This document shows positions 2,867 to 29,001 of a stretch of DNA of 29,001 nt, in pieces (position 1 is the first letter of the stretch; each line of letters starts with the position of its first letter). A model generated the notes under the pieces. That model did not search any database and was not told the DNA's origin. It saw only the letters and a program-made list of their open reading frames with translations. Where the stretch lies: the IMG/VR virus record IMGVR_UViG_3300038318_000072, positions 1 to 29,001 of that record; one strand, given 5' to 3'. A program made the position numbers and the translations under genes. Source of the stretch: a virus (lineage: Duplodnaviria > Caudoviricetes).

Positions 2867-2980
2867 TTGAGTAATGTAATAGATTATCTTGCCGTAATGG
2901 GCAAGGTAAGCCGCAGGAGTAACCTATTTAAGCGGCTTATGGCCTGGGCAAGGTTTGAAATGCGAGGTGACAGACATTGA
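2867..2980 (+). CDS. 37 aa hypothetical peptide translationally coupled to portal
   Basis: RBS gcaggtga, TTG start; its TGA overlaps the portal TTG. Confidence 0.4.
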   Translation: MSNVIDYLAVMGKVSRRSNLFKRLMAWARFEMRGDRH

Positions 2981-5136
2981 AACTCCCCGGTTTTATTACA
3001 AAGGTGGTGGATAAGGTGAAAGAGCACCAGGAGGAAATACAAGAACATGAAGCGCAGCAGGCTAAACTCGAAGGCTGGAAAAAGCGGTTACAAGAGGCCA
3101 TGGAGGAGCACGAAACCTTCCGGGCTGAGTGCGCTACATACGATGCTTTATATGGCGGTACTAAGCAGATTAGGCCGCTGGGCGGCACAGATATATATGT
3201 ATCGGACAGATACCAGGATGCAAACAACCCCGAACCAGCTAGGCAAGTAGTTAATATCATCTTCCAGCTCATAGAATCCCAGATAGACGTAAATCTCCCC
3301 GTCCCGGCGGTAGAGCCAACCGAGGAAGAAGATGAATCTGAACGCCGCCACATGATCGAGGGGCAGTTGTCCTACATGGCCGGCGATACTTCACTGAGAA
3401 GGATTAACAGCGAGAATGAGCGCATAGTCAAAAAGAACGGGCTAGGCTACTTCAAAGTACACTGGAACCCGGACTACAAGGCTCATACCTACCGTGGCAG
3501 GATAGAGACTACTAGCCCGCACCCGGGCAATATCGTACTGCAACCCGGAGTGACTAAAATACGCGATATGGACTACCTATTTCACATCGAAAACCGGACT
3601 ATAGATTATATTTGCCGCGAATACGGCGAAGAATACCGGGAGCAAATAGAGGCAGAGAACCTGGAATACGGGCAGTTAGACTACTTTAACAGTGGTACCG
3701 ATAGCTATAGCAATGAAAAAACCAAGAAGCTATCCATCGTTGAAGCCTGGTACAAAGACACAGACGGAGATGTGGGAGTTTTAACTTGGGTAGGCGATAT
3801 AACCCTTCGAGATAAACCTAAATTCTTCTACAAGCGGGATGAATCTGGGGAAGTAATCGAATATGACGAAATAGACATATCCCAGCATGATGAGGAAGGA
3901 AACTTGACCGGTACCGAAACCGTACAGGTACGCTGCCATGTACCAAGCTACTTCCCCTTTGTACCCTGGTACAACATACCGAGGGAGAAGTCGGCACGAG
4001 GATTATCCGATCCGTATATTATTGCCGATCAGCAGGAGGGCATTAAAAAGCTACTGAGCATCGAAGAAGAAAAGCAAATGAAGGGCACGACAAAGATATT
4101 TGTGCGCAAAGGTAGCGGGGCTGAGAATAAGATCACTAATTCAGTGAGCCAGATTATCGTTACCGAAGATCCGGTAAATGACGTTGTAACTAAAGACTTA
4201 AAGACACCGGACAATGCTTTAAAGGACTTATATTATATCTACCTGCAGGCCGCCAAGGACGCACTAGGAATTACCGAGGCCAGCCAAGGCAGAACCGATA
4301 GAGGTAAAGAGTTATCAGGCCGAGCCTTAGAGATACTCGCGGCCAACACCCAGGGCAGGCTAGGCGTAAAAGCCGACGAAAAAGACATTGCCTATACCGA
4401 GCTTTATCGCATGTGGTATGATTTCCTGCTGGCCTTTGCCGACCACCGCATACCATACCGGACCGATGGCAAGGATAACCGCCCGGTATACGGTTACTGG
4501 GACAAATCCAAGTTAATCAAGCAGGACGATGCCGGAGAATGGTATTACCCCGAGTTTGATATATTCGTCCAAGCTGAATCAGCCTTACCGAAAGATAAGC
4601 GGTTTATCTTAGACTTAGCCAACAATGCCGGTGATAGATTAGATAATGTAGAATACTGGATGCTAATGGAGGCTATCGGAGTACCACAGGCTTCTGCGAT
4701 ACTGGAAATGGAGCAGCAAAAACTACAGCAGCAGCCACCACCGGGAGGTATGCCGCAGGATATGCCCATGTTGCCCGAAATGGCTGGAGGCATACCAAAT
4801 ATGCCGGAAACACCGAACGCGCCACCTGCGCCATTACAAGAGCCAATGCCGGGAGGAACACCGCCGGAAATAGCGCAGATGATCCAAACTTTGCCCCCGG
4901 ACATACAACAGCAGTTAATGAGTTTGCCGCCTGACCAGCAGGTGGCTTTTTTAATGCAGTTATTGCAGCAGGGGGAGCAACCACAGGCAGGAGCAGGATT
5001 GCCCCCGGATATTGAGCAGGTTATAGCCCAATTACCGCCTGAGATACAAGCGCAGTTTATGCAACTGCTGCAGACTAACCCCGAGGCGGCCATGACTATG
5101 CTGCAAGAGGTAATGGGAGGGCAAAACGGGCTATAG
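2977..5136 (+). CDS. Portal protein (P22-like) with long Pro/Gln-rich C-terminal tail
   Basis: 719 aa, follows TerL. Motifs VVNIIFQLIESQI, GLGYFKVHW, YFPFV, GITEASQG...SGRALEIL. Confidence 0.88.
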   Translation: MKLPGFITKVVDKVKEHQEEIQEHEAQQAKLEGWKKRLQEAMEEHETFRAECATYDALYGGTKQIRPLGGTDIYVSDRYQDANNPEPARQVVNIIFQLIESQIDVNLPVPAVEPTEEEDESERRHMIEGQLSYMAGDTSLRRINSENERIVKKNGLGYFKVHWNPDYKAHTYRGRIETTSPHPGNIVLQPGVTKIRDMDYLFHIENRTIDYICREYGEEYREQIEAENLEYGQLDYFNSGTDSYSNEKTKKLSIVEAWYKDTDGDVGVLTWVGDITLRDKPKFFYKRDESGEVIEYDEIDISQHDEEGNLTGTETVQVRCHVPSYFPFVPWYNIPREKSARGLSDPYIIADQQEGIKKLLSIEEEKQMKGTTKIFVRKGSGAENKITNSVSQIIVTEDPVNDVVTKDLKTPDNALKDLYYIYLQAAKDALGITEASQGRTDRGKELSGRALEILAANTQGRLGVKADEKDIAYTELYRMWYDFLLAFADHRIPYRTDGKDNRPVYGYWDKSKLIKQDDAGEWYYPEFDIFVQAESALPKDKRFILDLANNAGDRLDNVEYWMLMEAIGVPQASAILEMEQQKLQQQPPPGGMPQDMPMLPEMAGGIPNMPETPNAPPAPLQEPMPGGTPPEIAQMIQTLPPDIQQQLMSLPPDQQVAFLMQLLQQGEQPQAGAGLPPDIEQVIAQLPPEIQAQFMQLLQTNPEAAMTMLQEVMGGQNGL

Positions 5137-5146
5137 GAGGGCAGCC

Positions 5147-5281
5147 ATGACCCAAAACGAAATGCTACAGGCGCTTAGTCAGATATGGTTATCCTGCGCC
5201 AGGGATTGTCCAGAGGCAGATCAGGATGCCATTTTAGAGCATATCGAGGCTCTGCAATTACTAATATTTAAATTTGAGTAG
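5147..5281 (+). CDS. 44 aa hypothetical protein
   Basis: RBS ggagg; MTQNEMLQALSQIWLSCARDCPEADQDAILEHIEALQLLIFKFE*. Confidence 0.55.
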   Translation: MTQNEMLQALSQIWLSCARDCPEADQDAILEHIEALQLLIFKFE

Positions 5282-5286
5282 AAAAT

Positions 5287-5413
5287 TGAGCGGTGGCGGA
5301 AAAAGGTAGACGCTTGCCAACGCTGTAAGGTACCCATTCTGATGTGATAACGACACAGGGTGACAAGCGAAAAAGGTTGGTACTATGCAGGGTGCAAATC
5401 CCTGCCCGCTCAC
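5287..5413 (+). ncRNA. tRNA-like RNA with expanded anticodon arm
   Basis: Acceptor TGAGCGG/CCGCTCA, Leu-type D arm TGGCGGAAAAAGGTAGACGC, T-like arm GCAGGG-TGCAAAT-CCCTGC. The anticodon arm is replaced by ~70 nt closed by TGCCAAC/GTTGGTA. Confidence 0.65.
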
Positions 5414-5533
5414 ACAATAATGATGTTTACGTCTTTTGTTGGAAGCCGAAAGACAAGAGGCTTTGGCCGTTGAGTCTTATCAACGGTTTTATGCCGAGTT
5501 AGCTCGTTAGACAAGAGAGGTAGTTGATATCCA

Positions 5534-5869
5534 ATGCCCAAAATACATGACCTACCTGATGGTAGACATGCTTTTAGGTGCCCGGGGTGTGGTGAAGTCC
5601 ATACATTAAATGATACTTGGGAATTTAATGGCAATTATGATAGCCCGACATTTTCACCTTCTATTTTGGTCACTTCGGGACATTATATGCCTGGATACAA
5701 TAAGAATCATTGCTGGTGCACCTTTAACAAAGAGCATCCGGAAAGTCCTGTATTTAAATGTTATCGTTGTCATTCTTTTGTAAAGAATGGGATGATACAG
5801 TTCTTACCAGATTGCACCCACGAATTGACGGGGCAAACGGTAGAAATTCCGGATTGGAAAGAGGGGTAA
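5534..5869 (+). CDS. DUF6527-like Cys/His-rich protein
   Basis: FRCPGCG..H...WEFNGN..SPTFSPSILV...CHSFVKNGMIQFLPDCTHELTGQTV. Confidence 0.7.
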   Translation: MPKIHDLPDGRHAFRCPGCGEVHTLNDTWEFNGNYDSPTFSPSILVTSGHYMPGYNKNHCWCTFNKEHPESPVFKCYRCHSFVKNGMIQFLPDCTHELTGQTVEIPDWKEG

Positions 5870-5874
5870 TAGAA

Positions 5875-6117
5875 CTGACTAACACTGAGCGCAAAGAGAT
5901 TATAGACCGCTATCAATGCAACCCTTTCACACACCCTTTAACATGCGGATATAATTCAAACCACGAAATACTATTCCCTTCGCACGTTGATGAAAAATTA
6001 ATTTTGTATTGCCCTAATTGTGATTATAAACAAGAGATTAACGATGAATTCATTAAACTTTTAGACACATTAGACAAAAACGCCAATCAAATTAGGGAGA
6101 TGTTTGAAAAAACTTAA
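5875..6117 (+). CDS. Small putative Zn-binding protein (probable CTG start)
   Basis: HPLTCG...H...CPNCDYKQ. RBS gagggg 8 nt before an in-frame CTG. The ORF-track start at 5758 overlaps the upstream gene. Confidence 0.6.
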   Translation: MTNTERKEIIDRYQCNPFTHPLTCGYNSNHEILFPSHVDEKLILYCPNCDYKQEINDEFIKLLDTLDKNANQIREMFEKT

Positions 6118-6144
6118 CACGAATTGAAAAGGAGGGAAAAAAGT

Positions 6145-6552
6145 ATGGCTAAATACCGTAAGAAACCGGTTGTCATTGAGGCTTATTGCCCATACAAAGG
6201 AAAGATGCCGGAATGGCTTGAAAGTGCATTATGCAATAGGGGGATTCGGGAGCGCGTGTCTGGTGGTTTTGATATTGATACCTTAGAGGGCACTATGCAC
6301 GCAAGCGAGGGCGACTACATTATTAAAGGTGTAAACGGCGAGTTTTACCCATGCAAACCAGAAATATTCAAGAAAACTTATGAATTAGTAGAAGGAGAGA
6401 AGCGATTTTGTATACCGATATTCTTAACCACTTGGATACTGAGATTCAAAATCTCCAAAACCAGATATATGAACTTTCGGAAAGGAAGAAAGAACGCGAA
6501 AAAGCTAGAGAGTCTATCAGATTACTTCAAGCCGAAGAAGAAAAGAAGGTAG
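6145..6552 (+). CDS. Widespread phage protein of the KKPVVIEA/TLEG/GDYIIKGV/YPCKP family, with C-terminal run-on
   Basis: MAKYRKKPVVIEA...TLEGTMHASEGDYIIKGVNGEFYPCKPEIFKKTYE; RBS aaggaggg. Confidence 0.8.
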   Translation: MAKYRKKPVVIEAYCPYKGKMPEWLESALCNRGIRERVSGGFDIDTLEGTMHASEGDYIIKGVNGEFYPCKPEIFKKTYELVEGEKRFCIPIFLTTWILRFKISKTRYMNFRKGRKNAKKLESLSDYFKPKKKRR

Positions 6553-6677
6553 GCAATCTGGCTGTACAGAAGGGTATTTGCCCATTTCCAGATGCATGCG
6601 AGAAGGCCAAGTACTGTACTCTTAATCGTTGCAATGCCGACACATGTTCAAATGGCTATGCTTATCGCATGAGCTAA
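6408..6677 (+). CDS. Coiled-coil protein with Cys-rich tail
   Basis: RBS aaggag, TTG start, heptad-rich N-terminus, five Cys at the C-terminus. Confidence 0.55.
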   Translation: MYTDILNHLDTEIQNLQNQIYELSERKKEREKARESIRLLQAEEEKKVGNLAVQKGICPFPDACEKAKYCTLNRCNADTCSNGYAYRMS

Positions 6678-6854
6678 AAGCATGACGTAAAAGGTATGTA
6701 ACCAACCGGTTAGGCAGCGAGCCTGGGGAGTATAAGCCATATGCAGGGGTGGGTGCAGGCATATAAATTAATTTTAATAGCTAGCAGTATATCCGGTGCT
6801 TATTAAGATTTAAGCCCGGATTTTTTAATTAGGTTTTAAAAAAGGAGTGGGAAA

Positions 6855-7133
6855 ATGGATAAAAACACTAATGAATTGATCGAAAAACTGTCCTCTAAGG
6901 TACACGACGCATGGTGGGAAGAAAAGAAAAGGCAAGGATTTCATCCGCCAAGTAATCACGAGGGCGATGGGAAATATAATCCTGCGTGTGATAAGTTTTA
7001 TAAAACATGCAACCGTTGCCATACTGATATGTACCCTTACGATGAACTGCCGGAGCACGTTAAAGAGTATGATCGGGTAACGGTTAGGGCTATATTAAAG
7101 GCTATTGACGAGTTGGGGATAAAATTAGTTTAG
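6855..7133 (+). CDS. Stand-alone RyR-domain protein
   Basis: [22 protein letters not shown]...[19 protein letters not shown] matches the RyR repeat pattern (H..W...K...GW...H..L.PY.EL....K.YDR). Confidence 0.8.
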
Positions 7134-7149
7134 AAAGCGAGGAATTATC

Positions 7150-7521
7150 GTGAAGGAGCTTAAAAATGGATTAATAACTCAGAAATACACAAAGGTGCTG
7201 CATGAAAAAGATTATCAGTATAATGCACCGCATCATTTTACAGTACACAGTATGGAAAAACAACCAGAAGGTACCCCGCAACCATTTCTTGCGGCGATAG
7301 ACTTTCAAGAAGGACCTATCAAAGAGTGCGGCGTTAACGGGGTAAATAACGAGGACTTAATCGCTATGGTTATTTGCAGATTACAGCATTTTCAGAATAG
7401 TGATTTCAAATGCCGTGAAAACGCTATGGCTATAACCAAGTTGGAAGAATGTCTCATGTGGCTGAGGAAGAGAACCAATGACAGAGAATTAAGAGGAGCC
7501 GAGGGAACGCATCAAGTTTAA
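7150..7521 (+). CDS. tad1: Tad1-family (Thoeris anti-defence 1) cyclic-nucleotide sponge
   Basis: APHHF...[71 protein letters not shown] follows the Tad1 consensus (FQ.G...GV...DL...RL..FQ...F..REN..A.T..EE.LMW...R..DR..R...GT). Confidence 0.85.
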
Positions 7522-7524
7522 TAT

Positions 7525-7614
7525 GTGGTTCGGCGAAGGTTGCACCGTTTTGCCGTTGGTAGCGAAAGCAGGCCATAAATCGCAACCGTTCCGGGGTGGA
7601 AGTCCCCGGGCCAC
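7525..7614 (+). ncRNA. Second tRNA-like / T-arm-containing structured RNA
   Basis: Closing GTGGT/GCCAC, central stem GGTTGC/GCAACC, T-like arm CCGGGG-TGGAAGT-CCCCGG. Confidence 0.45.
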
Positions 7615-7661
7615 TCATAATACAGACCATATTGCTGATGTCGGGAAAATGGTTAAACACA

Positions 7662-7683
7662 GACGCCTACGGGCGTTATTTTT
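7662..7683 (+). terminator. Probable intrinsic terminator
   Basis: gacgcc-tacg-ggcgtt-attttt. Confidence 0.55.
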
Positions 7684-7699
7684 GATTGGAGGAATTGAA

Positions 7700-7969
7700 A
7701 TGCCGAGTTTAAATGTAAGTGATTGTGCAGGAATGGTCCCTAAAATGGTTACCTTATCTGACAATCTGGAACGCACCGAAAGTACTTTAAATAACATTAA
7801 TAAGGTGATTAGCGAAATACGCGCCAAGTTCCAAGGACCTATGCCATGTGCTGAATGTGGCGACGAAGCGAAAAGAGCAAAACCCGGAATACTTGAACAA
7901 GCTGAGATAAATATGATACACGCAGAGGCGATATTTAAGGACCTGAGCGAACTAGGGGAACGGCTATAG
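7700..7969 (+). CDS. 89 aa hypothetical helical protein
   Basis: RBS ggagg before ATG 7700 (MPSLNVSD...). The longer ORF-track start runs through the RNA element and terminator. Confidence 0.65.
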   Translation: MPSLNVSDCAGMVPKMVTLSDNLERTESTLNNINKVISEIRAKFQGPMPCAECGDEAKRAKPGILEQAEINMIHAEAIFKDLSELGERL

Positions 7970-8105
7970 CAACCAAATGGTAGGGCTTCGGCCTGGGAAA
8001 TTGCCCTGTTCATTGCGGGCCTGACTTGGAGACTTGCCGGGCAATGCGTATGATTGCCAAGGGGTGGGAGCCGGGGGCAGAAATTAGGAGGAGGGGGAAA
8101 CCCAA

Positions 8106-8288
8106 ATGGAGGGACCGTTTGATGTTAAACAGCATTTATGCAAGTGCGGGTGCAAAAATTTCTATGTAATCACGGAGCTATATTTTGATGCGGCTGGATG
8201 CTCTAGCGGAAAAGATGGCTGGCAATTCAAATGTATTAAATGTGGGACCATTTACGATAAAAACGGACAGGAGGGAAAACCCAAATGA
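8106..8288 (+). CDS. 60 aa zinc-ribbon protein
   Basis: CKCG...CIKCG; strong RBS. Confidence 0.65.
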   Translation: MEGPFDVKQHLCKCGCKNFYVITELYFDAAGCSSGKDGWQFKCIKCGTIYDKNGQEGKPK

Positions 8289-8650
8289 TTGACCGGAACT
8301 ATGATATGGAGGAAGTAGTCTTAAGGAAGTTACAATTTAAAATAGGCCGATTGGTTGATAAGGGCTTAATTGCGTCCCTTGACAGCGTTCAATTAGAAAG
8401 TTATTATGAGCATTTTCTTGATGGCATGGTGTATGAGTTACGGTTATTGTTGTTAGGTAAAACAAACCAAGAGGTAAACGTAAAATACCCAAAAGACTGG
8501 TGGCAAGCGGTTAAAGAAAGATTTGCCCCGGAAACATTCTTGAAATGCTGGCCTGTGGAATATACGGAAATAACCTTGCGGGCTACTGAAATATATCCAA
8601 ATATTGCGTTACCCGGCGAAAAGTGCATTGTTCAAGTAGCTAAATTCTAA
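8285..8650 (+). CDS. Hypothetical phage protein
   Basis: 121 aa, ATGA coupling with the upstream gene, YPKDWWQAVKERFAP motif. Confidence 0.7.
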   Translation: MIDRNYDMEEVVLRKLQFKIGRLVDKGLIASLDSVQLESYYEHFLDGMVYELRLLLLGKTNQEVNVKYPKDWWQAVKERFAPETFLKCWPVEYTEITLRATEIYPNIALPGEKCIVQVAKF

Positions 8651-8700
8651 GGAGGGAAAACCCGCGAAGCGATATTTTTGTTTTAAGGTGGTGATGCCCG

Positions 8701-8952
8701 GTGAACAATGATCTTGAAAAGATTGCTTGTGTTCAGCAAGCTATAGAAGATATTTTGGAAGAAGTGAATGAAGGGCATGTGAAGGGAGTTATGTTTCAAA
8801 TAATCTATGATAACGATTGTCACATGACTGGCTCGACAAATAATCTTCTTTATCTCGAAAAACTTGGATTACTTGAATCGGCAAAAATAGATGTACTTGA
8901 AAAAGTTAGGAGCAGTAATGCGGAGGATGGCGATTTGTTAGACGAGGGTTAG
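8701..8952 (+). CDS. Hypothetical acidic protein
   Basis: 83 aa, RBS aaggtggtga, GTG start. Confidence 0.65.
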   Translation: MNNDLEKIACVQQAIEDILEEVNEGHVKGVMFQIIYDNDCHMTGSTNNLLYLEKLGLLESAKIDVLEKVRSSNAEDGDLLDEG

Positions 8953-9084
8953 TTCTTTTCCATGCAGGGCTACATAACTAAAAACATAAATTTGCCCAGG
9001 TATTCACGCAGCAAGGTTTTTACCTCTCCTTTCGCCTTGCTGCACCTGGGCTTTAAAGTTAAAGGGGAGAAGGAGGCACTTTAA

Positions 9085-9231
9085 TTGCAAGAAATCAAAC
9101 TATCACCCGAAGAAGTCCGCGTAATCCAAGAACTGCGCGGGATTGATTGGGGCAAACTGACGGTAATAAAGAAAAACGGCAAGGTAGTAATAATAACACC
9201 TGCGCCGGATATTAAAGTGAGCAAGGACTAA
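9085..9231 (+). CDS. DUF2292/YezD-like small protein
   Basis: RBS aaggagg, TTG start; MQEIKLSPEEVRVIQELRGIDWGKLTVIKKNGKVVIITPAPDIKVSKD (LR.I.(F/W)G.v.i...dG.v pattern). Confidence 0.65.
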   Translation: MQEIKLSPEEVRVIQELRGIDWGKLTVIKKNGKVVIITPAPDIKVSKD

Positions 9232-9252
9232 CCAAAAAACGGGGAGGTAAAC

Positions 9253-9732
9253 ATGATAAAGCATTTAAAGTATCTAAAATATGTTATTCGGCATAAATGG
9301 TATGTTTTTATTGAATGTTGCAAATTAGGCATACCGTGGCGCGGGATAGTTCACGACATGAGCAAACTTAAACCTGCTGAATGGTTGCCTTATGTTAATC
9401 ATTTTTATGGCGACAAGCCTTCGCCTAGAGATAAAACAGGTGCCTATAATCCATTGTTAGTTAGAGGGGATTTTGATTATGCTTGGTTGTCGCACCAACA
9501 TAATAACCCGCACCATTGGCAGTATTGGATACTTCGGGGTGATGCAGGATGGACTAAAGTAATGCCAATGCCAGATAAGTATATAAGAGAAATGGTTGCA
9601 GATTGGCAAGGCGCAGGCAAAGCGATAACTGGCAAAAATGATGCAACGGATTGGTATAAAGCCAATAAAAGTAAAATGGAGTTACACCAAACAACTATAA
9701 CAAGGGTAGAGGAGTTACTAGGAATTAAATAA
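9253..9732 (+). CDS. DUF5662-like HD-type protein
   Basis: RHKWYV...HDMSK...AWLSHQHNNPHHWQYW...EMVADW. Confidence 0.75.
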   Translation: MIKHLKYLKYVIRHKWYVFIECCKLGIPWRGIVHDMSKLKPAEWLPYVNHFYGDKPSPRDKTGAYNPLLVRGDFDYAWLSHQHNNPHHWQYWILRGDAGWTKVMPMPDKYIREMVADWQGAGKAITGKNDATDWYKANKSKMELHQTTITRVEELLGIK

Positions 9733-9753
9733 CTTGAATTTACTTCAACCAGG

Positions 9754-9813
9754 AAAACCGGGGAAGTAGGGATTAAGCAGGATTCTGCTAGTCTCTATTT
9801 CTCCGGTTTTTTT
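9754..9813 (+). terminator. Long imperfect hairpin plus T run (terminator/attenuator)
   Basis: aaaaccggggaagtagggattaagcag-gatt-ctgctagtctctatttctccggttttttt. Confidence 0.7.
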
Positions 9814-9951
9814 GTTTTCTGACTACTGCGCCCCGTCTTTGGGGCTTATTCTATGCCCGTTTAGGGTTAAACACCTACTTTGTAGCGCAAAGGCCGGATG
9901 TCGCTACCCGGCGAGTACCTAACCAAGTTTACTGTGAGGAGGTGACGTGTA

Positions 9952-10092
9952 ATGGCAGGACAAAACAACGGTAATGTACCCAAAATGCCAGTAAAAGGGA
10001 TTCAGTCTTATGGCTCCGCAACTGGCAAGCCTGCGGAAACAGGCAAAGTGATTTACGGCTCAGATTTAAGAGACGGTAAAAAAGGCAAATAG
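9952..10092 (+). CDS. 46 aa basic peptide upstream of scaffold
   Basis: RBS gaggaggtga; MAGQNNGNVPKMPVKGIQSYGSATGKPAETGKVIYGSDLRDGKKGK*. Confidence 0.65.
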   Translation: MAGQNNGNVPKMPVKGIQSYGSATGKPAETGKVIYGSDLRDGKKGK

Positions 10093-10149
10093 CCACAAAT
10101 TCGCATGGGATAGCGCAAAAATCCATTTATTTTTAGGAGGTATAAAACC

Positions 10150-11271
10150 ATGATAGAACGCGCAAAAGTAACGGAAATCGCGGAACCGTTGAGGTTTGAC
10201 TTGCAATTATTCGCTGAGGGCGAAGGAGGAGGCGCACCTGCTGGTGATACCGGCGATAGTGTGAGCAATACTACTTCTTCGGTAATCCCCGGTGACGACT
10301 ATGCCAGTGGTGGCCCGGAACCCCCGGAGAACCAACCGGCAGAACTTATAGACTTTGAAAACTTTGATTTCAACAACCCGGAGGGAGAAGAAGAACCCCC
10401 GGCAAGTGATGAACCGATAAACGAACTGGTAAGTGAGCCCGAGGATGAACCAATAGATGAAGTACCCGAACCCGTAAAAAAAGAGCAATCCCCCGAAGCT
10501 AACGCTGCATTTGCAGAAATGCGAAGAAAAGCAGAAGAGGCAGAAAAGGCACTAAAAGAGCGTGACGCTTGGGTAGAGCAGACTTTTGGCAACCAGGGTA
10601 TAACGAGTTGGCAACAGTATCAAGCTGCCATAGAAGAAGGTAGGAGACAGCAGGAGCTTGCTAGGCAACAGGAGTTACAGCAAAGGCCACAACAGGTATA
10701 CCAGCAGACTTACCAAGAGTTTATCGAGCAGGGCTATGATCAACAAATAGCCCATAGATTAGCCCAGACTGAGGCTAATACAGTAGCGCAGGCGTTAGAA
10801 GTGCAGACTATGAAAGAGCAAATGACAGCCCTTGAACGTCAACGCCAAGAGGCAGCGCAGCGCGAGCAGGAGAAACAGCAACAGCAACAGCAAGAAGCGG
10901 CAAAAGAGAAGATGGTAAACGAGCTACTAAGCGATCACAAAAAACTGCAAGAAGAATATGCCGACTTAGTACCTGCTGATTTAAACCAGCTAGATACCGC
11001 AACAGTTGAGCGATTACAGCGCGGCTATAGCTTATACGATGCCTGGTTTTTATCCAACCGCGCCAAGATTGTAGAGCAGAAACAAAAGGCTGCGTCGCAA
11101 AAGACTTTAAACAACCTTAACAGTAAATCTCATTTAAAAACCGAGAGTGATGGCGCAGGGGAATCAAGTGCAAGTGCAATACCATTGCCGCCTGATACTC
11201 TGCAAATGTATTTAGATTCTGGCATGACTGAAAAGCAGGCCAGGTCGTTTCACAAAAAACTATATGGATAG
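10150..11271 (+). CDS. Capsid scaffolding protein
   Basis: N-terminal LRFDLQLFAEG motif, acidic low-complexity region, coiled coils, located before the capsid genes. Confidence 0.8.
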   Translation: MIERAKVTEIAEPLRFDLQLFAEGEGGGAPAGDTGDSVSNTTSSVIPGDDYASGGPEPPENQPAELIDFENFDFNNPEGEEEPPASDEPINELVSEPEDEPIDEVPEPVKKEQSPEANAAFAEMRRKAEEAEKALKERDAWVEQTFGNQGITSWQQYQAAIEEGRRQQELARQQELQQRPQQVYQQTYQEFIEQGYDQQIAHRLAQTEANTVAQALEVQTMKEQMTALERQRQEAAQREQEKQQQQQQEAAKEKMVNELLSDHKKLQEEYADLVPADLNQLDTATVERLQRGYSLYDAWFLSNRAKIVEQKQKAASQKTLNNLNSKSHLKTESDGAGESSASAIPLPPDTLQMYLDSGMTEKQARSFHKKLYG

Positions 11272-11777: not shown

Positions 11778-12719
11778 GTGATTGTAACTGCAACTGCGGG
11801 GAAAATAGATTCAGCGATAGGTCGCCTGGAAGGACCATTGCTCGCGTACATGATTAAAGAGGAGGCCGACTTCGCAAAAGATAGCATTAAAAACAAACTA
11901 TATAATGTGCGGAAGTCCAAACACTATAGCGAATCATTCGCAGGTTTAACTGGTATTGGGCCTTTTGTACCTACAGATGGTGCGATTCCCTACGAGAGCC
12001 TGGAAGAAGGTTATACTAAGCAGATGATTCATACCGTGTTCAAGAAAGGTATAGAAATCAAACGGGAATTAATTGACGACAGCCGGGTTATAGACATGGA
12101 GAGTTTAGCTGGTGAATTAATTGATTCATGGAACATGACCCAGGAAGAATTGCTACATGCACCGTTTAACAACTGCGCTGCTACAACTTTTACTTTTGGT
12201 GGCAAAACTTTTGATATTAGTACGGCAGACGGCCAGGCATTAGCATCTAATGCTCACCCGTCTAAGACTGGCAAAGGCAGCGACCAGGACAACTATACCA
12301 CTAACGCCTTTAGTATAGCCAACTTAAAGACTGCCGAGGACATGATGGCGGCCATAAAAACCGATGTAGGCAACAAAGGTAACGTAAAGGGTGATACCAT
12401 TTTTGCCAGCTACAGCCTGAGAAATGAGATTTGGGAGGCTGTACATTCTCTGGGCAAGGTAAACTCCGGCGACAACAACGTAAACCCGTATAAGGACAAA
12501 TTCAATGTCATTATTTCCGATTGGCTAGATGATGGAAAGTGGTTTCTTATAGATAGCCGTGTTCTCCGGCGCAACCTATACTTCCTAGAAAGAAAGCCGC
12601 TTGAAGTTAAGTCACAAATTGACTTTAATACCGATAATTGGCAAATAAAAGCCTACGCCCGTAACAGCTTAGGATTTAAGTCCTGGGAGGCTATTGTTTG
12701 CAACGTGCCAAGTGCCTAG
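11778..12719 (+). CDS. Major capsid protein (HK97 fold, Mu gpT-like)
   Basis: 313 aa; KGIEIKRELIDD, ADGQALASNAHP, NNVNPY, WLDDGKWFLID, ARNSLGFKSW. Confidence 0.85.
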   Translation: MIVTATAGKIDSAIGRLEGPLLAYMIKEEADFAKDSIKNKLYNVRKSKHYSESFAGLTGIGPFVPTDGAIPYESLEEGYTKQMIHTVFKKGIEIKRELIDDSRVIDMESLAGELIDSWNMTQEELLHAPFNNCAATTFTFGGKTFDISTADGQALASNAHPSKTGKGSDQDNYTTNAFSIANLKTAEDMMAAIKTDVGNKGNVKGDTIFASYSLRNEIWEAVHSLGKVNSGDNNVNPYKDKFNVIISDWLDDGKWFLIDSRVLRRNLYFLERKPLEVKSQIDFNTDNWQIKAYARNSLGFKSWEAIVCNVPSA

Positions 12720-12857: not shown

Positions 12858-13763
12858 ATGCCAAATTATTTATCCAAAACATCTGATGCAATGGTTTGCC
12901 AAGTCTGCGGCAAAGAGTTTAATGGTAGCAAGAGATTTAAGTATTGCAGCAAAGAATGTAATCAAAAGGCGCGAAATGCGAGGAGAAGTCCCAAACATAC
13001 ACGCAACTGCTTGTTTTGCGGCAAAGAGTTTATAACTGGCAGATCGGATCAAGTTTATTGTGAAAGAGCCTGTAAAAAGAAAGCTAGTTATAGAAGGAAT
13101 AAGGAAAATGCAAATGCTACTACTCGTAGACACTACCAAAACAACAAGGAAAGGTATGCTGAATTAGGCAAGAAGTATCGGGAAGAAAATAAGGATAAGA
13201 TACGGGAAAGTGATCGCAAATATCGGAAAAACAATCGCGAGGAATTATTGGCTAAAAAGCGGGCATACCATTATCGCATGAAGGATGACCCGGAATATCA
13301 GGAAAGGCGAAGGTTATCGGCTATAGCCACAATGAGTAGGCCCGGATATGCAGAACAATGCAGGAAAAGATATAGGGAATATATCCGAACCCCGGAAGGC
13401 AGGGAAAAGGCTAGGATTGCTTGTGTTAGGCGCAGGACACTTCAGAAGAAAGCCATAGCAACTCTAACCCTTAAAGAATGGGAGAAGTGCCTAAAATACT
13501 TCGACCACAAGGACGCCTACACCGGCCTACCTATGGACATTGTTAGCCAAGATCACGTTATACCCGTAAGCAAGGGTGGGGGGTATACCATGTCAAATAT
13601 CGTGCCTTGCGAAAGAGACATTAATTGCTCGAAAAGTGCAAAAGATATATTTGAATGGTATACACCCGATCAACCCTTTTATTCAGAAGCCCGCTTGCGT
13701 AAAATCCTTAAATGGACGGGGCTAAAACCAGATTCAGAAGTCCAACAACTACCAATGTTTTAA
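12858..13763 (+). CDS. HNH endonuclease with two N-terminal Zn-finger repeats
   Basis: CQVCG..YCSKEC and CLFCG..YCERAC, basic helical middle, DHVIPVSKGG...SNIVPC....N.SK. Confidence 0.85.
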   Translation: MPNYLSKTSDAMVCQVCGKEFNGSKRFKYCSKECNQKARNARRSPKHTRNCLFCGKEFITGRSDQVYCERACKKKASYRRNKENANATTRRHYQNNKERYAELGKKYREENKDKIRESDRKYRKNNREELLAKKRAYHYRMKDDPEYQERRRLSAIATMSRPGYAEQCRKRYREYIRTPEGREKARIACVRRRTLQKKAIATLTLKEWEKCLKYFDHKDAYTGLPMDIVSQDHVIPVSKGGGYTMSNIVPCERDINCSKSAKDIFEWYTPDQPFYSEARLRKILKWTGLKPDSEVQQLPMF

Positions 13764-23864: not shown

Positions 23865-26800
23865 ATGGCATGGGGATTTAAAGAATACGCTGAAACACAT
23901 GGAGTAAAATATACCCCGCCACATGAGAAGAAAAAGAAGAAAGAAGAAAAAAACATTACCCCGAATACTACTAGTGTAGCCGACTTTCGTAAGCTAGATG
24001 AAACGAGTGCAAAGGCCGAGATACCTAAGTATACTCCACCCTACATCCCTAAAGAATCAGGGGCGGTTAAACGTTCGCTAGGCTCTTTAGGTATTGGGCT
24101 GCTTGAAGGTGTAGAAAAACTAAGGGATAAATACGCGGCCGATAAACTATTGGAAGAATCTGCGAGTAAAAGAAATACTCCTTTGTTAGATGCAACCGCA
24201 CCAAAGTATACACCGATAATAACTCCTGAGCAATCAAAAGGCTACGAAGAGAAACTCGGGCTAAAAGGCACTTTGGGTGAAAGTATATGGCGCGGTATAG
24301 GGACTGAAACTCCCGCCATAGCCATGTCTTATGGTGGTTTGGGTGCAGTAACTAAGGGCGCACCTGCATTGCAAAAGGCTTTAACCGGTGCTGGCAAATG
24401 GACTGAAACAGGCAGGCGTGGCGTTGCGGCAGGGGCTTTATATACTCCCATAGCTGAGGGGAATCCAGAACTCAAAGACTACTTAGAAAACATGGCTTTA
24501 TTCGGCGTGGGTGACGTTGCTTTTATGGGCGCGGCTCATGGGTTAGGTAAAGGTATTAATAAACTAAAAGGTTTAAAAACAAAGGGTGAGCCTTCGGCGG
24601 ACTTTGACTTTTTAGTGAACGAAGAGGCAACACCCGCAGGGGGACAATTAGTTTTACCAGCAGGGAGGGAGGCGTTAGTCTTACCGGGTAGCCCGGAGTC
24701 ATTGCCATTAACCGAAGGGACTAATTGGCGCACTCCTTCACCGTATGAGACATTCACAGCACTAGAGGGGCAAAAACCGATGGCGTTACCAGCAGGACAC
24801 GAACCGTTGCCATTGCCAGAAGGTTATTACCCGAATTGGGAGACTCCTACACCTTACCAAACATTCTTGGCATTAGAGAAACAAAAGCCGTTGAAGATAG
24901 CACCGGGCGAGCAACCCAAAATGTTAGGTGAAGGTTACTATCCGGATTGGGAGCATGGCAAAGGCTACCCACAAGAAGGCAAATGGTTTGCAGACCCTTA
25001 CGGTAATATAAAAGATACTCCGGGAGCCATAAAAGCATTGCCAGGGGGTACCAATAAAAGAGTAACGGGCAAAAATCTTGATGATAGTTTTGTCCCCCGT
25101 TCAGATATTGGCGATCCGGCCTATCTAGGTGGAGCAGCAAAGCGATACAACGAGATTATAGACGCAGAAGTAATTAGTATGAAGAATGAACTTGGCGGGG
25201 TAGAGACTATAGGCAAAAACCCGTATGAATTGCAACCGGGACAAGAGTTATTTGAAGGTTACGAACGGGTGTCGCTTAATCCTTCGTGGTATCGCGAGTG
25301 GTGGCAAAAACATTATCGTGCGCCACGCGAAGGTGAATGGCGGGACTTAGCTATTAAAAACTTAATGGAAGGCAACCCGGAGACGGGCGAACCTGCCAAT
25401 GAGGAGTTTTTAGCCCTCCTATCGGAGTTATCCAGAGGGCAGGAGTTGCCGGCAGAATGGCATGGACTACAGAAAACCATAAGAGATACCTCTGCTATTG
25501 AAGAACCGGAGTTAAAGCCATTAATCACTGATATGCACGCAGAACAGGCTAAAGTAGAACCTTACGGCCTTACCCGGGATATGGGCAGGCTGAATGAGAT
25601 TGAAAATACTTCTCGCGGCAGAATGGCTGATAAGGCAGACTTCGAGGAGTATGAGGGCGTTAAGTTTAAGCGGGGCGACAATGAATATAAGCAATGGACT
25701 GATGCAAAAAGACAGGCTATTAACGAATCGTGGGAGATACCCTGGAATGACATGGACAAATCTCATGGTGCTGATTTTTCAATAGCTGGTGCCCGAAAGA
25801 TACTAGAAGGGAAAACAGATTATAAACCCTGGGGAGAAGAGATGATCGCAGATTATGGTAATGATATTGCTCCCCGATTACCCGAATTATGGGAAAAGTC
25901 TCATGGACTAGCTAACTATTATAAAAAACAACAGCAATCGGCAATTACCAACCGTACTGGTAGGGATTATGTAGCTAAAGAACAAGAGCCCAGTGGTATA
26001 ATATACGAACAATCAACACCACAAGAAAGGCAGAGATGGCATGACGAATGGGCAGGGAAATCAACAGGGCCAGAACAAGATAGTTTATTCGGAGCAGTCG
26101 GAAGTAATTTACGGCGAAACTCAGGAAGGATATTTGAACCCGAAGGAGTACCCGATAAAGAAGGAGCGCTTACTGGACGGGAAGCAAGCTCCAAATTCAA
26201 GCACAACCTCGCCGAAGAACAACAACAAGATTTAGAGGTTCTTCAAGCAATATCCGAACAGCGCAAAATAGGACCATTCACCATTAATAAGGTTGAACTT
26301 GCACCAGAGGCTATGAAGCGGCCAGATTTCAAGGCAGCAGAAGACATAGCAGAAAAATTAGGATTAAGACTTGTCACCTATAAAAGTAAAGGTGGGGCAA
26401 GGGGGGCGCAGTACGGCAGGACCTTATATATCAACGAAGGCATTACAGACCCAGTGGACTATGTTTTCCTGCATGAGATAGGGCACTCCATAGAAGTTAC
26501 TCACCCGGAACATTATACTCGCCTAATGGATTTGAGTTTTGAACATTTAGCTGATGCGGAAGGAATAGAGCAGCACTATATCAAACAAAACTACAAGACT
26601 GCTGACCGTCCCCATGAATTTGCAGCTGACGTATTTGCGGAGGCTATGAGTACTCCTGGATTCTTTGCTCGTGTAGCTGAGAAGGCCCCAGAGTTGATTA
26701 AACCCTTATTGGAAGCCATGGACCGGCTAATCACCCATGTAAAAAACATGATTAGCGAGGAAGATACCATAGTCCCGTATATGCGTGGATGGGAAACGTT

Positions 26801-29001
26801 GCGACAAAAGATACATAATGAAGTTGCTATGCCATACTTCAAAGACGCTATGGGTGAAAAACAGTTTGTGGATACCTTTGGTAAGCAGTGGCAAGACCCA
26901 GCAGCAAAGACTAAAAGTGGTGCGGTATCAGAAATAGATCCTACTAGTACGCCGGAGTTTAAAAAGTGGTTTGGCGATAGCAAGGTAGTGGATGAGAATG
27001 GCAAGCCATTGGTGGTTTATCATTTATCGCCCAGAGAAAATATAGATGAATTAGCAAATGATTTTGTTGATGGAGAAAGTCCGTTCTCACGCATCGGTAT
27101 ATTTCTTACTCGTGATCGCGATTTTCAATCTGCATATTCGGCACGAGCTGGCTCTGAACCACATGAATTTTATGTTACTGGCAAACTGTACGAAACTCAA
27201 AACGCAACTCGAAAAGATGTAGAACAATTCTTTGAAGAAAGTCCGCAAGGAGAAGAGTTATTAAAAAATAATGGTGTGCGCATTAATGAGGAAGATGGCT
27301 CAATATATTATGACAATGATTATGCAATTGACAAGGTTTTACAAGAATTACGAGACTCTGAATTGTCTGAAATAAATGAAATTGCTGAATCCCCAGAATT
27401 TACCGAATGGTTACAAGAAAAAGGATATGACGGCGTTGATACAGGGGGAAATTTACTCGTTTTCTCCCCTACTCAAATAAAATCCGTCTACAACCGTGGC
27501 ACATGGGACGCAAGCAACCCTGACATTCGCTTTAAGCTAGGCGAGGGTGGTAAGTCTATCGTTGATGATTTAAAAGCCATGATAACTTACGGCGCAGAAC
27601 AACTGCACAAGGGTGGCTATGATCATTTTACCAAACTGATAAAACAACAATTCTCTAAAGAACTTGAAGGCTATAGCCCCGAAGCAGTAGAGAAGCTAAT
27701 AACCAATGTGAGGGCACAAGCTAAACAGTTAAGAGATACCGGGGAGACGCAGATTTCTCTTCAAGGGCAAAAATATCCAGTGAGAAGGGAAATGAGCGGC
27801 AGAGATATTAAGGGAGAACAAACAACAGGGGATATGGGAGATATTGATACTCGCCAGCACGTTGTAAGTAAAACTCAGCGTGAACCTATCATAGCCAAAG
27901 AATTAACCAAAAAGGTTTACACCAAGGCGGTAGACGATCTTTACCATTTAGACGAATTAGACAGGTTTGTAGCAAAAACCACAGGCAAGCATTTGCCAAC
28001 AGAAGACAAGGCTTATTTGCTGGCAATAAACAGTAGAGAAGCCACAGGCGCGGCCAAAGCAATCCTAGAAGAAAACCTGGTAGATGCACAGGGAAATATT
28101 ATCGGACAATCCTTCAAGGAAGTGCTAAATAAAATCCCGCGCGGTAAAGAACAGGATTTTAGAGACTATCTGGTATTAAGGAATTCTATCTCATGGATGG
28201 AGCAGGGTAAAAAGGTATACCCTGAAAAGTGGGAAATGACACCAGAAAAAGCTATGCAAAGATTAGCGGCATACGACCAGCAGACGCCGGAATTAAAACG
28301 AGCGGCAGACGAATATGTTAAATGGCATAGAGATATGGCTCAGGCTTGGCTGGTTGATACCGGGATAATTACCCCGGAGGCATGGCAGGCTTTTTTAAAG
28401 GCACACCCATATTACACACCCTTTCAACGGCAGATGAAAACTATTGAGACTACACCGGGACAGGGTAAAGCAAGGCGGGGATTCGCCAATCAAACTAACC
28501 CTACTAAAAAAGCAGAAGGCTCAGAGCGACCTATCATTGACCCGATAGAAAGCACGATAGAGCAGGTAGACCGCTATATTAAAACAGCTAAACGCAATGA
28601 GGTAATGCAGGCGGTTGTTCGTAACCTAGAAAAAGCACCCGAAGAATTAGAGGCATTTGCAGAAGTAATCCCCGAAAAGGGCCTAGATGCTCTGGATAAC
28701 GTGGATGCTATTCTTGGCAAAGATGGCATTGATGGGGTTATTAATTACCTAGAAGAACCATTCGAGCAGATGATAGCTAGGAAAGGAAAAGCAGAACAGC
28801 CATTAGATAAACCCAATATTGTTAGGGCTTTTGTTAATGGCGAACGGGTACATGTTAAGGTAAACGACCCGGTGTTACTTGACGCCTTAGTTGCTTTGTC
28901 TGATACGGGCAAAAATGCCATAGTGGAATCATTTAGAACTGCTACTAGACTAATGAAGATATTAACTACTGGCGGTAACCCTATATTCGCGGCAAGAAAT
29001 A
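23865..29001 (+). CDS. Large polyvalent (ejection-type) protein, >1700 aa, partial: zincin motif, ART-PolyVal-like domain, region typical of LPD38-bearing proteins
   Basis: ATG 23865 after RBS aagggggg. All spot-translated segments are open, and absence from the ORF track fits no stop before the edge. HEIGH at 26472-86; TPEFKKWFGDSKVVDENGKPLVVYH...GYDGV...VFSPTQIKS..N.GTWDASNPDIRF; IIDPIES; LTTGGNPIFAARN. Confidence 0.85.
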   Translation, partial: MAWGFKEYAETHGVKYTPPHEKKKKKEEKNITPNTTSVADFRKLDETSAKAEIPKYTPPYIPKESGAVKRSLGSLGIGLLEGVEKLRDKYAADKLLEESASKRNTPLLDATAPKYTPIITPEQSKGYEEKLGLKGTLGESIWRGIGTETPAIAMSYGGLGAVTKGAPALQKALTGAGKWTETGRRGVAAGALYTPIAEGNPELKDYLENMALFGVGDVAFMGAAHGLGKGINKLKGLKTKGEPSADFDFLVNEEATPAGGQLVLPAGREALVLPGSPESLPLTEGTNWRTPSPYETFTALEGQKPMALPAGHEPLPLPEGYYPNWETPTPYQTFLALEKQKPLKIAPGEQPKMLGEGYYPDWEHGKGYPQEGKWFADPYGNIKDTPGAIKALPGGTNKRVTGKNLDDSFVPRSDIGDPAYLGGAAKRYNEIIDAEVISMKNELGGVETIGKNPYELQPGQELFEGYERVSLNPSWYREWWQKHYRAPREGEWRDLAIKNLMEGNPETGEPANEEFLALLSELSRGQELPAEWHGLQKTIRDTSAIEEPELKPLITDMHAEQAKVEPYGLTRDMGRLNEIENTSRGRMADKADFEEYEGVKFKRGDNEYKQWTDAKRQAINESWEIPWNDMDKSHGADFSIAGARKILEGKTDYKPWGEEMIADYGNDIAPRLPELWEKSHGLANYYKKQQQSAITNRTGRDYVAKEQEPSGIIYEQSTPQERQRWHDEWAGKSTGPEQDSLFGAVGSNLRRNSGRIFEPEGVPDKEGALTGREASSKFKHNLAEEQQQDLEVLQAISEQRKIGPFTINKVELAPEAMKRPDFKAAEDIAEKLGLRLVTYKSKGGARGAQYGRTLYINEGITDPVDYVFLHEIGHSIEVTHPEHYTRLMDLSFEHLADAEGIEQHYIKQNYKTADRPHEFAADVFAEAMSTPGFFARVAEKAPELIKPLLEAMDRLITHVKNMISEEDTIVPYMRGWETLRQKIHNEVAMPYFKDAMGEKQFVDTFGKQWQDPAAKTKSGAVSEIDPTSTPEFKKWFGDSKVVDENGKPLVVYHLSPRENIDELANDFVDGESPFSRIGIFLTRDRDFQSAYSARAGSEPHEFYVTGKLYETQNATRKDVEQFFEESPQGEELLKNNGVRINEEDGSIYYDNDYAIDKVLQELRDSELSEINEIAESPEFTEWLQEKGYDGVDTGGNLLVFSPTQIKSVYNRGTWDASNPDIRFKLGEGGKSIVDDLKAMITYGAEQLHKGGYDHFTKLIKQQFSKELEGYSPEAVEKLITNVRAQAKQLRDTGETQISLQGQKYPVRREMSGRDIKGEQTTGDMGDIDTRQHVVSKTQREPIIAKELTKKVYTKAVDDLYHLDELDRFVAKTTGKHLPTEDKAYLLAINSREATGAAKAILEENLVDAQGNIIGQSFKEVLNKIPRGKEQDFRDYLVLRNSISWMEQGKKVYPEKWEMTPEKAMQRLAAYDQQTPELKRAADEYVKWHRDMAQAWLVDTGIITPEAWQAFLKAHPYYTPFQRQMKTIETTPGQGKARRGFANQTNPTKKAEGSERPIIDPIESTIEQVDRYIKTAKRNEVMQAVVRNLEKAPEELEAFAEVIPEKGLDALDNVDAILGKDGIDGVINYLEEPFEQMIARKGKAEQPLDKPNIVRAFVNGERVHVKVNDPVLLDALVALSDTGKNAIVESFRTATRLMKILTTGGNPIFAARN
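24690..24955 (+). repeat. 111 nt (37 aa) degenerate coding repeat, ~2.5 copies
   Basis: Trp codons at 24726, 24837 and 24948; LPL.EG...NW.TP.PY.TF.ALE.QKP. Confidence 0.75.

Follow-up and report, generated by a model that had tools for sequence, protein, structure and literature searches.

The window analysed here, a single phage contig of 29,001 nucleotides (Caudoviricetes; IMG/VR record IMGVR_UViG_3300038318_000072, positions 1 to 29,001), carries between its portal gene and a scaffold-like open reading frame (ORF) an interval of small genes (5147-9732). This interval is a genuine anti-signalling hotspot of known type and comprises three core genes and ten genes of mixed cargo. The reading which we consider probable is that this interval represents a hypervariable cargo slot with a likely anti-Thoeris/anti-CBASS core, consisting of Tad1 and a RyR-domain protein, that a third gene is linked to such sponges, i.e. 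to signal-neutralising proteins, and that the rest is mixed cargo. The original prediction, made from the DNA letters alone, had described about 13 small genes interrupting the head module at this place, and thirteen ORFs (g1 to g13) are indeed found there, all on the + strand and each with a Shine-Dalgarno-like motif. For the family assignments the 30 window proteins were scanned with the Pfam cut-offs, PHROGs and NCBIfam; the NCBIfam scan added no family to the slot genes, and eight of the 13 have no family match. The DUF6527-like, RyR and DUF5662 calls of the prediction all lie above the Pfam cut-off.

The gene on which the prediction was anchored, g7 (7150-7521, +), is a Tad1 of the CmTad1 clade. 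It matches the PDB entry 8KBB over its full length (phmmer, E 3.7e-45) and CbTad1 with an E-value of 3e-13, and its match to the Pfam profile PF24729 lies just below the cut-off of 27 (26.3 bits, E 8e-6). All five residues by which CmTad1 contacts cA3/cAAG (C87/R88/A91/M92/T95) are kept, as are the hexamer-interface residues K96/E99/M102/W103/K106, and with Q98 changed to E ten of the eleven listed residues are identical. The four gcADPR-pocket residues of CbTad1 (F82/N92/R109/R113) are likewise all present, as F81, N91, R108 and R112. The protein in 8KBB is named CmTad1 and stems from a Clostridioides mangenotii prophage (PDB 8KBB-8KBD); as published, its affinity for cA3 and cAAG is about 10-20 nM, and it protects phage against type I Thoeris and type III-C CBASS, not against a 3'3'-cGAMP CBASS (PMC10680739). 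CmTad1 itself binds 3'3'-cGAMP only weakly, and g7 differs from it by the Q98 exchange and in its loops. Because of these differing loops the cyclic dinucleotide spectrum of g7 is not readable from the sequence, and our best guess is a ligand spectrum the same as that of CmTad1. The protein would form the known hexamer and is predicted to sequester gcADPR as well as cA3/cAAG. In itself this Tad1 is ordinary. Genes of the CmTad1 type are often found near packaging genes, with terL in the flank of seven out of 25 clusters (L013-L048) and one gene (L029) directly after a portal-like gene. In addition, g7 matches chain I ("gp184") of the cryo-EM entry 8Y6V (E 1.4e-6), which we take to be a jumbo-phage capsid structure, and therefore the question arises whether some Tad1 proteins are packaged.

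Directly upstream lies g6 (6855-7133, +), which encodes a stand-alone single-repeat RyR-domain protein of 92 amino acids (PF02026, E 5.8e-10, 39.7 bits, cut-off 27.4) and is a candidate member of the RyDEP / RyR Tad family. The closest solved relatives of g6 are bacterial RyR domains of 100-103 residues (3NRT, 6UAG); single repeats of this kind can pair up. For two phage proteins with this domain an activity has been reported in the accessible texts: the RyR domain of gp68 from vB_PatP_CB1 binds 1''-3' gcADPR (KD 43 nM) and inhibits type I Thoeris (10.64898/2026.06.04.730250), and RyDEP (gp78 of phage DyoEdafos) cleaves 2'/3'cADPR, which was bound by six of eight homologues, with cleavage by none of the other homologues tested (PMC13232231). 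Apart from the PF02026 domain, g6 shares with these proteins about 31-32% identity in the aligned columns, a context adjoining counter-defence genes and the His/Trp/His/Asp ligand residues: H17/W20/H56/D73 align with H75/W78/H100/D117 of RyDEP and H129/W132/H154/D171 of gp68. Across the 78 closest homologues of g6 the four are conserved in 76, 74, 71 and 71 sequences, respectively. Unlike RyDEP and gp68, g6 is a short form, and in its clade a CxxCH motif precedes the second histidine. It is likely that g6 binds 2'/3'cADPR, and because it corresponds to only the ligand-contacting half of RyDEP it would probably do so as a homodimer. Since no NARP1 genes are seen in the slot, a role as a sponge is more likely than one as a glycosidase.

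RyR domains are also fused to known sponges. Two RyR-Tad1 fusions (P0154, 56% identical to g6, and L189) have the two domains in the order seen here, and one RyR-Tad2 fusion (P0182) was found. Among the 150 listed homologues of g6 none carries Tad1, g4, DUF6527 or DUF5662 (62 of the 87 longer ones were Pfam-scanned). In two other proteins the g6-type RyR domain is joined to TIR (P0233) or to a dATP/dGTP pyrophosphohydrolase (P0217). The short RyR forms, as well as the fusions of g4 described below, may already be listed in the supplements of the RyDEP and sponge-diversity papers.

The third core gene, g4 (6145-6552, +), is the one assigned by the prediction to a KKPVVIEA family. It belongs to phrog_419 (E 2e-32) and encodes a KKPVVIEA / PGDYG-like domain (core residues 1-84), a candidate sponge or adaptor. 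The ORF runs 145 bases, i.e. with its last ~47 codons, into g5 (6408-6677, +), which has its own Shine-Dalgarno motif and encodes a coiled coil with a Cys-rich tail that matches no family. A variant in run X5 places a stop in this tail of g4 and is silent in g5 (in run X2 the contigs agree with the window at this place), and all three variant sites examined are third codon positions in the g5 frame. The 3' tail of g4 therefore appears to be dispensable, and the g4 protein would be the domain of ~84 residues which is typical of the family. The PGDYG profile (PF14083) does not match g4 itself, homologues reach it below the cut-off (E 1e-2 to 3e-4), and matches in BFVD are named "PGDYG protein".

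What links g4 to sponges are its fusions. Out of 46 Tad1 homologues with at least 217 amino acids, 29 are g4-Tad1 fusions, and among the listed best 120 of 1906 long g4 homologues 22 (nine clusters at 70% identity) possess a separate C-terminal Tad2 domain, two are fused to Sequestin, one to Tad8 and one to Lar. Because other phages fuse it to signal-neutralising proteins, g4 is a good sponge candidate, and its fusions follow the pattern by which Sequestin was discovered (10.1101/2025.07.12.664507). Most likely g4 works together with sponges; it may bind a signal itself, or it may serve them as an adaptor or as a module for oligomerisation. In a neighbour scan with the same profiles for g4 (best 80 of at least 591 loci), DUF6527 (60 loci) and DUF5662 (best 80 of 314), 11 of the 80 g4 loci (five of 55 clusters) have a gene for Tad1, Tad2 or Acb4 no more than 1 kb away, and 12 have one in the whole flank. 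Next to g4 genes of both Tad1 clades are seen, and terL is found near g4 in 22 of the 55 clusters. The association with sponges for which the prediction suggested a test is seen for g4, by fusion and by neighbourhood, and for RyR by fusion; the scanned DUF6527 and DUF5662 neighbourhoods lack it (see below).

The model of g4 (pLDDT 87) shows a small beta barrel for which the PDB offers no clear counterpart, the best values being reached by SH3/Tudor domains (Z 4.9); comparison of the sequences of g4, g13 and g2 with those of the PDB gave nothing meaningful. Two assignments of g4 were rejected. It is not taken as a member of Tad2, because g4 has no PF11195 match, PF11195 lies outside the g4 domain in the fusions, and the structural matches are weak: the Tad2 structures 8SMF and 8WJE have Foldseek ranks 28-29 with the g4 model (E 1.3, prob 0.13) and are absent among the listed VIA rows. 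Nor is it taken as the N-terminal domain of gp68, since the hhalign probability is 0.4% against gp68 and 2.5% against the aligned family of this domain; the BFVD hit in the phage of gp68 is probably a separate g4-like gene (74500-74748). Some short helical partners of g4 look Acb2-like (P0051, P0063, P0066, P0080, P0083, P0099, P0106, P0108); Pfam, PHROGs and PDB do not confirm this, and seven such fusions were not counted. A literature search, which mostly did not extend to subscription papers, found no paper on DUF5662, phrog_419 or PGDYG. A second small beta domain, of the type at the N-terminus of gp68, turned up in various phages as a fusion partner of Acb4, Tad2, Tad1 and RyR (L170, 5296-5742; L153, 5543-5953; L032, 628-1083; L042; L046; P0123; P0167, residues 1-70). 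By hhalign its relation to g4 is not significant.

Studying the relatives of the window reveals that the interval is a hypervariable slot in which gene-sized pieces are gained and lost. Twelve relatives were anchored on the portal (61-86% identity, longest match), and ten, several of them near-duplicates, span the whole interval. In these ten complete close relatives the slot has a length of 495-2684 bp, compared with 4816 bp here. Its left boundary is the portal gene (2977-5136, +; phrog_156, E 6.5e-14). The right boundary (9952-11271, +) comprises a conserved gene for 46 amino acids (81-96% identical in ten of the 12 relatives) and the scaffold-like ORF (10150-11271, +), which is a positional call with the unannotated phrog_35275 as its sole match. 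Two small genes recur between these boundaries: g1 (5147-5281, +; 44 amino acids, no family), the lineage-typical first gene of the slot, has a 61-64% identical homologue in six of the 12 portal-anchored loci, and g12 (9085-9231, +; 48 amino acids) is 77-79% identical at the same slot in three (L008, L009, L011). In contigs of other runs 7147 is directly followed by 9007 (Tad1 to g11 absent) and 7293 by 8669, and in run X5 9235 is followed by 9723 (g13 absent). Three metagenome loci anchored on the capsid gene contain a complete slot; two hold g1 only, and in the third (L278, portal 46%) the slot is occupied by a gene of the Acb2/Tad1-hairpin type (E 9e-25) together with one for Sequestin (E 8e-16). 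At the same position in distant phages (portal 27-28%) g4 is accompanied by Tad1 in L155, by an Acb4 fusion and Tad1 in L170, and by a Tad2 fusion in L153. Sponges recur in the slot, and they are not its sole cargo.

Two of the remaining genes belong to families with predicted enzymatic function. The first, g2 (5534-5869, +), matches DUF6527 (PF20137, E 9.5e-9, 35.5 bits, cut-off 23.6), the family of BubE, which is described as a Ser-His protease removing conjugates of ubiquitin-like proteins (Ubl) in Bub operons; the accessible text does not show an anti-phage role for these operons (10.1101/2024.11.21.623953). A serine in a PS motif and a histidine are invariant (S43 and H80 in 28 aligned homologues) and would correspond to those of BubE by motif, not by alignment. 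Unlike BubE, g2 is a stand-alone phage gene with a different Cys pattern (CxxC...H, CH), and Ubl, E1 and E2 genes of a Bub operon were not found among the 30 window proteins. It is predicted to be a Zn-binding Ser/His protease, and its family is of a protease type rather than a sponge; because the phage family keeps the invariant Ser and His, an anti-conjugation role is possible. A search for g2 fusions yielded 16 candidates, none of which passed (weak evidence), and for DUF6527/BubE only two preprints on Bub were found in the literature search.

The last gene of the slot, g13 (9253-9732, +), belongs to DUF5662 (PF18907, E 5e-45, above the cut-off) and forms a removable cassette. That it is HD-like, as proposed, agrees with the motif H..HD..H..HH..D (H34, D35, H81, H87 and H88 are invariant in 68 sequences, as is E43) and with its model (pLDDT 93), for which the top ten Foldseek and the top six VIA rows are HD proteins, each of them weak alone. 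The best matches are PgpH / HD-GYP-type domains (Z 5.2-6.8), followed by YqeK-type hydrolases. With PgpH / HD-GYP g13 shares the HD fold and the HD metal motif; however, the identity is 9-16%, the rmsd 3.5-4.1, and the GYP motif is not seen in g13. This supports a predicted metal-dependent phosphohydrolase of the HD superfamily, and the fold match does not give the substrate. No sponge was found in the fetched flanks of the 60 DUF6527 loci or of the 80 DUF5662 loci. Conversely, a distant DUF5662 gene follows Tad1 at 0.1-0.9 kb in eight of 36 Tad1 loci (four of 25 clusters), mostly near-identical large phages, and these DUF5662 genes are near-identical to each other and 20-25% identical to g13.

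Several observations weigh against an anti-signalling core in this slot. Tad1 occurs in the slot of none of the ten complete close relatives, RyR in one (L001, 65%) and g4 in one (L003); slots of the other close relatives hold HTH, DUF3307 and unnamed genes, and L153, L155 and L170, having been retrieved by way of g4, give a biased picture of slot content. Of the 29 g4-Tad1 fusions 27 look like one lineage (P0161 and P0165 differ). Moreover, g4 is very common, with at least 591 IMG/VR matches, and within the best 120 long homologues it is also fused to YopX (three), DUF551 (three), WDGH (two) and MazG (one), most of the remaining partners being unnamed. The RyR protein g6 lacks the N-terminal helical half of ~50 residues which carries Q54 of RyDEP (a gap in two alignments), and therefore a second chain would have to supply this half. 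In place of K147 and K170, with which gp68 binds its ligand, g6 has C45 and Y72, and the pairwise BLAST match between the two proteins is weak (E 0.027); together with the missing half this counts against strict family membership. Finally, as far as the accessible texts state, the N-terminal beta domain of gp68 itself is without anti-Thoeris activity (10.64898/2026.06.04.730250), and 19 of 84 sponge homologues inhibited nothing when tested (10.1101/2025.08.24.671296).

The slot could instead be a neutral landing site in which Tad1 and RyR arrived as a two-gene unit, the link of g4 to sponges being the result of its abundance and its tendency to form fusions. The lack of a sponge at this place in most close relatives, the order RyR-Tad1, which is that of the fusion L189, and the commonness of g4 with its dozens of unrelated fusion partners would fit such a view. 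However, 11 of the 12 sponge-bearing g4 loci have the sponge within 1 kb, g4 forms fusions with Tad1, Tad2, Sequestin and Tad8 and stands beside both Tad1 clades, and in phages unrelated to each other the head module repeatedly contains sponges of different families; we consider a neutral slot unlikely. Lower still we place the idea of g4 as an adaptor which binds the capsid or the portal and is related to the N-terminal domain of Dec from phage L. Such an adaptor would carry sponges, fused or bound to it, to assembling heads or mask structural triggers and not bind a nucleotide. Among the Foldseek matches of the g4 model the Dec structure 6E3C ranks second (E 0.53, prob 0.44; VIA Z 3.3 over 61 residues), a match no better than that of many SH3/Tudor domains, and there is no sequence-profile match of g4 to Dec. 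Hadary et al. mention that sponge proteins with a "6E3C" domain, a label which may refer to Dec, were removed. The frequent location of g4 near terminase and head genes and the Tad1 relative in 8Y6V mentioned above are also in line with an adaptor.

A further explanation takes the whole 13-gene block as a dedicated anti-defence island, with DUF5662 as a cyclic-nucleotide phosphodiesterase, DUF6527 as a deconjugase directed against bacterial ubiquitin-like defence, and the Zn genes as further inhibitors. The PgpH / HD-GYP-type proteins as the six best fold matches of g13, the distant DUF5662 genes after Tad1 and the conserved Ser and His of g2 argue for it, and published hotspots include the non-sponge inhibitors Bes1 and Bes2 according to the accessible text (10.64898/2026.06.04.730250). 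On the other hand, both families lack sponges in their flanks, the Tad1-linked DUF5662 genes are far from g13, Z-values below 8 on a helical model are weak, no anti-phage role is reported for Bub, and g13 is cleanly absent in a variant; such an island appears rather improbable to us. Thus, of the neighbours which the prediction had proposed as sponges or signal-degrading enzymes, RyR stands as candidate member of a published anti-Thoeris family and g4 by association, whereas DUF6527 and DUF5662 find no such backing; given its HD fold, DUF5662 may nevertheless be an enzyme. We therefore return to the hypervariable slot with a likely anti-Thoeris/anti-CBASS core, whose remaining cargo would include a predicted HD phosphohydrolase and a predicted protease of the Ser/His type, neither of them linked to the sponges here.

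The other slot genes, all on the + strand, are small. The gene g3 (5875-6117), for which a CTG start was inferred, encodes ~80 amino acids with Cys/His pairs and has no family. After Tad1 follow g8 (7700-7969, 89 amino acids, no family), g9 (8106-8288, 60 amino acids, two CxxC pairs, no family), g10 (8285-8650, 121 amino acids, a weak match to phrog_26218 with E 3e-4) and g11 (8701-8952, 83 amino acids, no family). For g3 and g10 no match was found among phage records, and g10 gave no usable Atlas hit. Two genes had been taken for Zn-ribbons; the CxxC pairs are there, and a family match is not. For these and the other small genes the scans weigh neither for nor against a counter-defence role.

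Non-coding elements are interspersed between the genes. A tRNA-like element (5287-5413, +; fold z -4.2 against pair-shuffles) consists of an acceptor and a T-arm with an insert of ~60 nt, and similar elements occur in L015 (1249-1410, upstream of Tad1) and L049 (2134-2177, near DUF6527). A degenerate tRNA-like element (7524-7616, +) is detected by ARAGORN at relaxed threshold only, and its 3' arm is also present in L001. Compared with pair-shuffled controls, the intergenic regions 5420-5533, 8953-9084 and 9733-9951 have more stable folds (z -3.4 to -4.9). The last of them (z -4.9), conserved in L001, L003 and L011, contains a long hairpin with a T-run (9751-9818, +; conserved in L011), a predicted terminator closing the block. 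Rfam gave no match, including for the tRNA-like element at 5287-5413, and no integron-like repeat family was found between the slot genes.

The co-expression with the head genes that had been proposed is only inferred from the gene order. The start of g1 lies 11 bases after the portal stop, and because no terminator-like site is found between them, read-through from the packaging genes would fit; on the other side the strong predicted terminator lies between the block and the genes for scaffold and capsid. Promoter-like sites are not above chance (eight versus 11.4 expected), and the one RNA run covers scattered pieces only and is uninformative on expression. Structural proteins do act as triggers in other systems: the portal activates SpbK (PMC11984713), and tail fibres tune type II Thoeris (10.64898/2026.06.04.730250). 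With respect to timing, the latter paper reports that counter-defence hotspots are often early.

Besides the slot the phage contig carries small and large terminase, portal, scaffold-like, capsid (11778-12719), HNH and virion genes. Runs containing stretches of the window come from fermentation, landfill, digester and sludge metagenomes. Because of the Tad1 clade and the Shine-Dalgarno usage a Bacillota host is probable; the capsid protein has no relative among GTDB contigs, and no GTDB prophage was found. As side observations, terL (1130-2605) is swapped among the relatives, with mostly 24-28% identity versus 61-86% for the portal and a short shared C-terminal end of up to 77% (L012). An HNH endonuclease gene (12858-13763) directly 3' of the capsid gene is present in L011 and absent in L002, L003, L004 and L007. 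An open-ended ORF (23865-29001, at least 1712 amino acids), located 3' of two long Gln/Gly/Ser-rich ORFs, has the look of a large virion protein, either polyvalent or ejected.

The closest known counterpart of the slot is the anti-signalling hotspot of N4-like phages, for which Acb4-Sequestin, Bes1, Bes2, Tad2, Tad3 and RyR Tad are named in the accessible text (10.64898/2026.06.04.730250). Both have a fixed genomic position, a variable content and several unrelated signal inhibitors. However, the N4-like hotspot lies beside primase and SSB genes, whereas here the head module is the site and most of the cargo has no evident link to counter-defence. A more far-reaching interpretation, which we put forward as tentative and rather doubtful, is that of a late counter-signalling platform in which a half-size, homodimerising RyR sponge would build the Repeat12 pocket and phrog_419 would be a new sponge family or adaptor directed against a signal without a matched inhibitor; DUF5662 may add a cyclic-nucleotide HD phosphodiesterase.

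Phage sponges have served as tools that revealed new bacterial immune signals, and this locus yields three ranked candidates, the short RyR form, the PGDYG-like domain and the HD hydrolase. The short form in g6 differs from the two RyR forms solved in 2026, and such domains are fused to Tad1 and Tad2 in nature. The PGDYG-like domain is among the commonest unannotated phage domains. Although the hotspot concept has already been published, the interval between portal and scaffold is a place to mine for further inhibitors.

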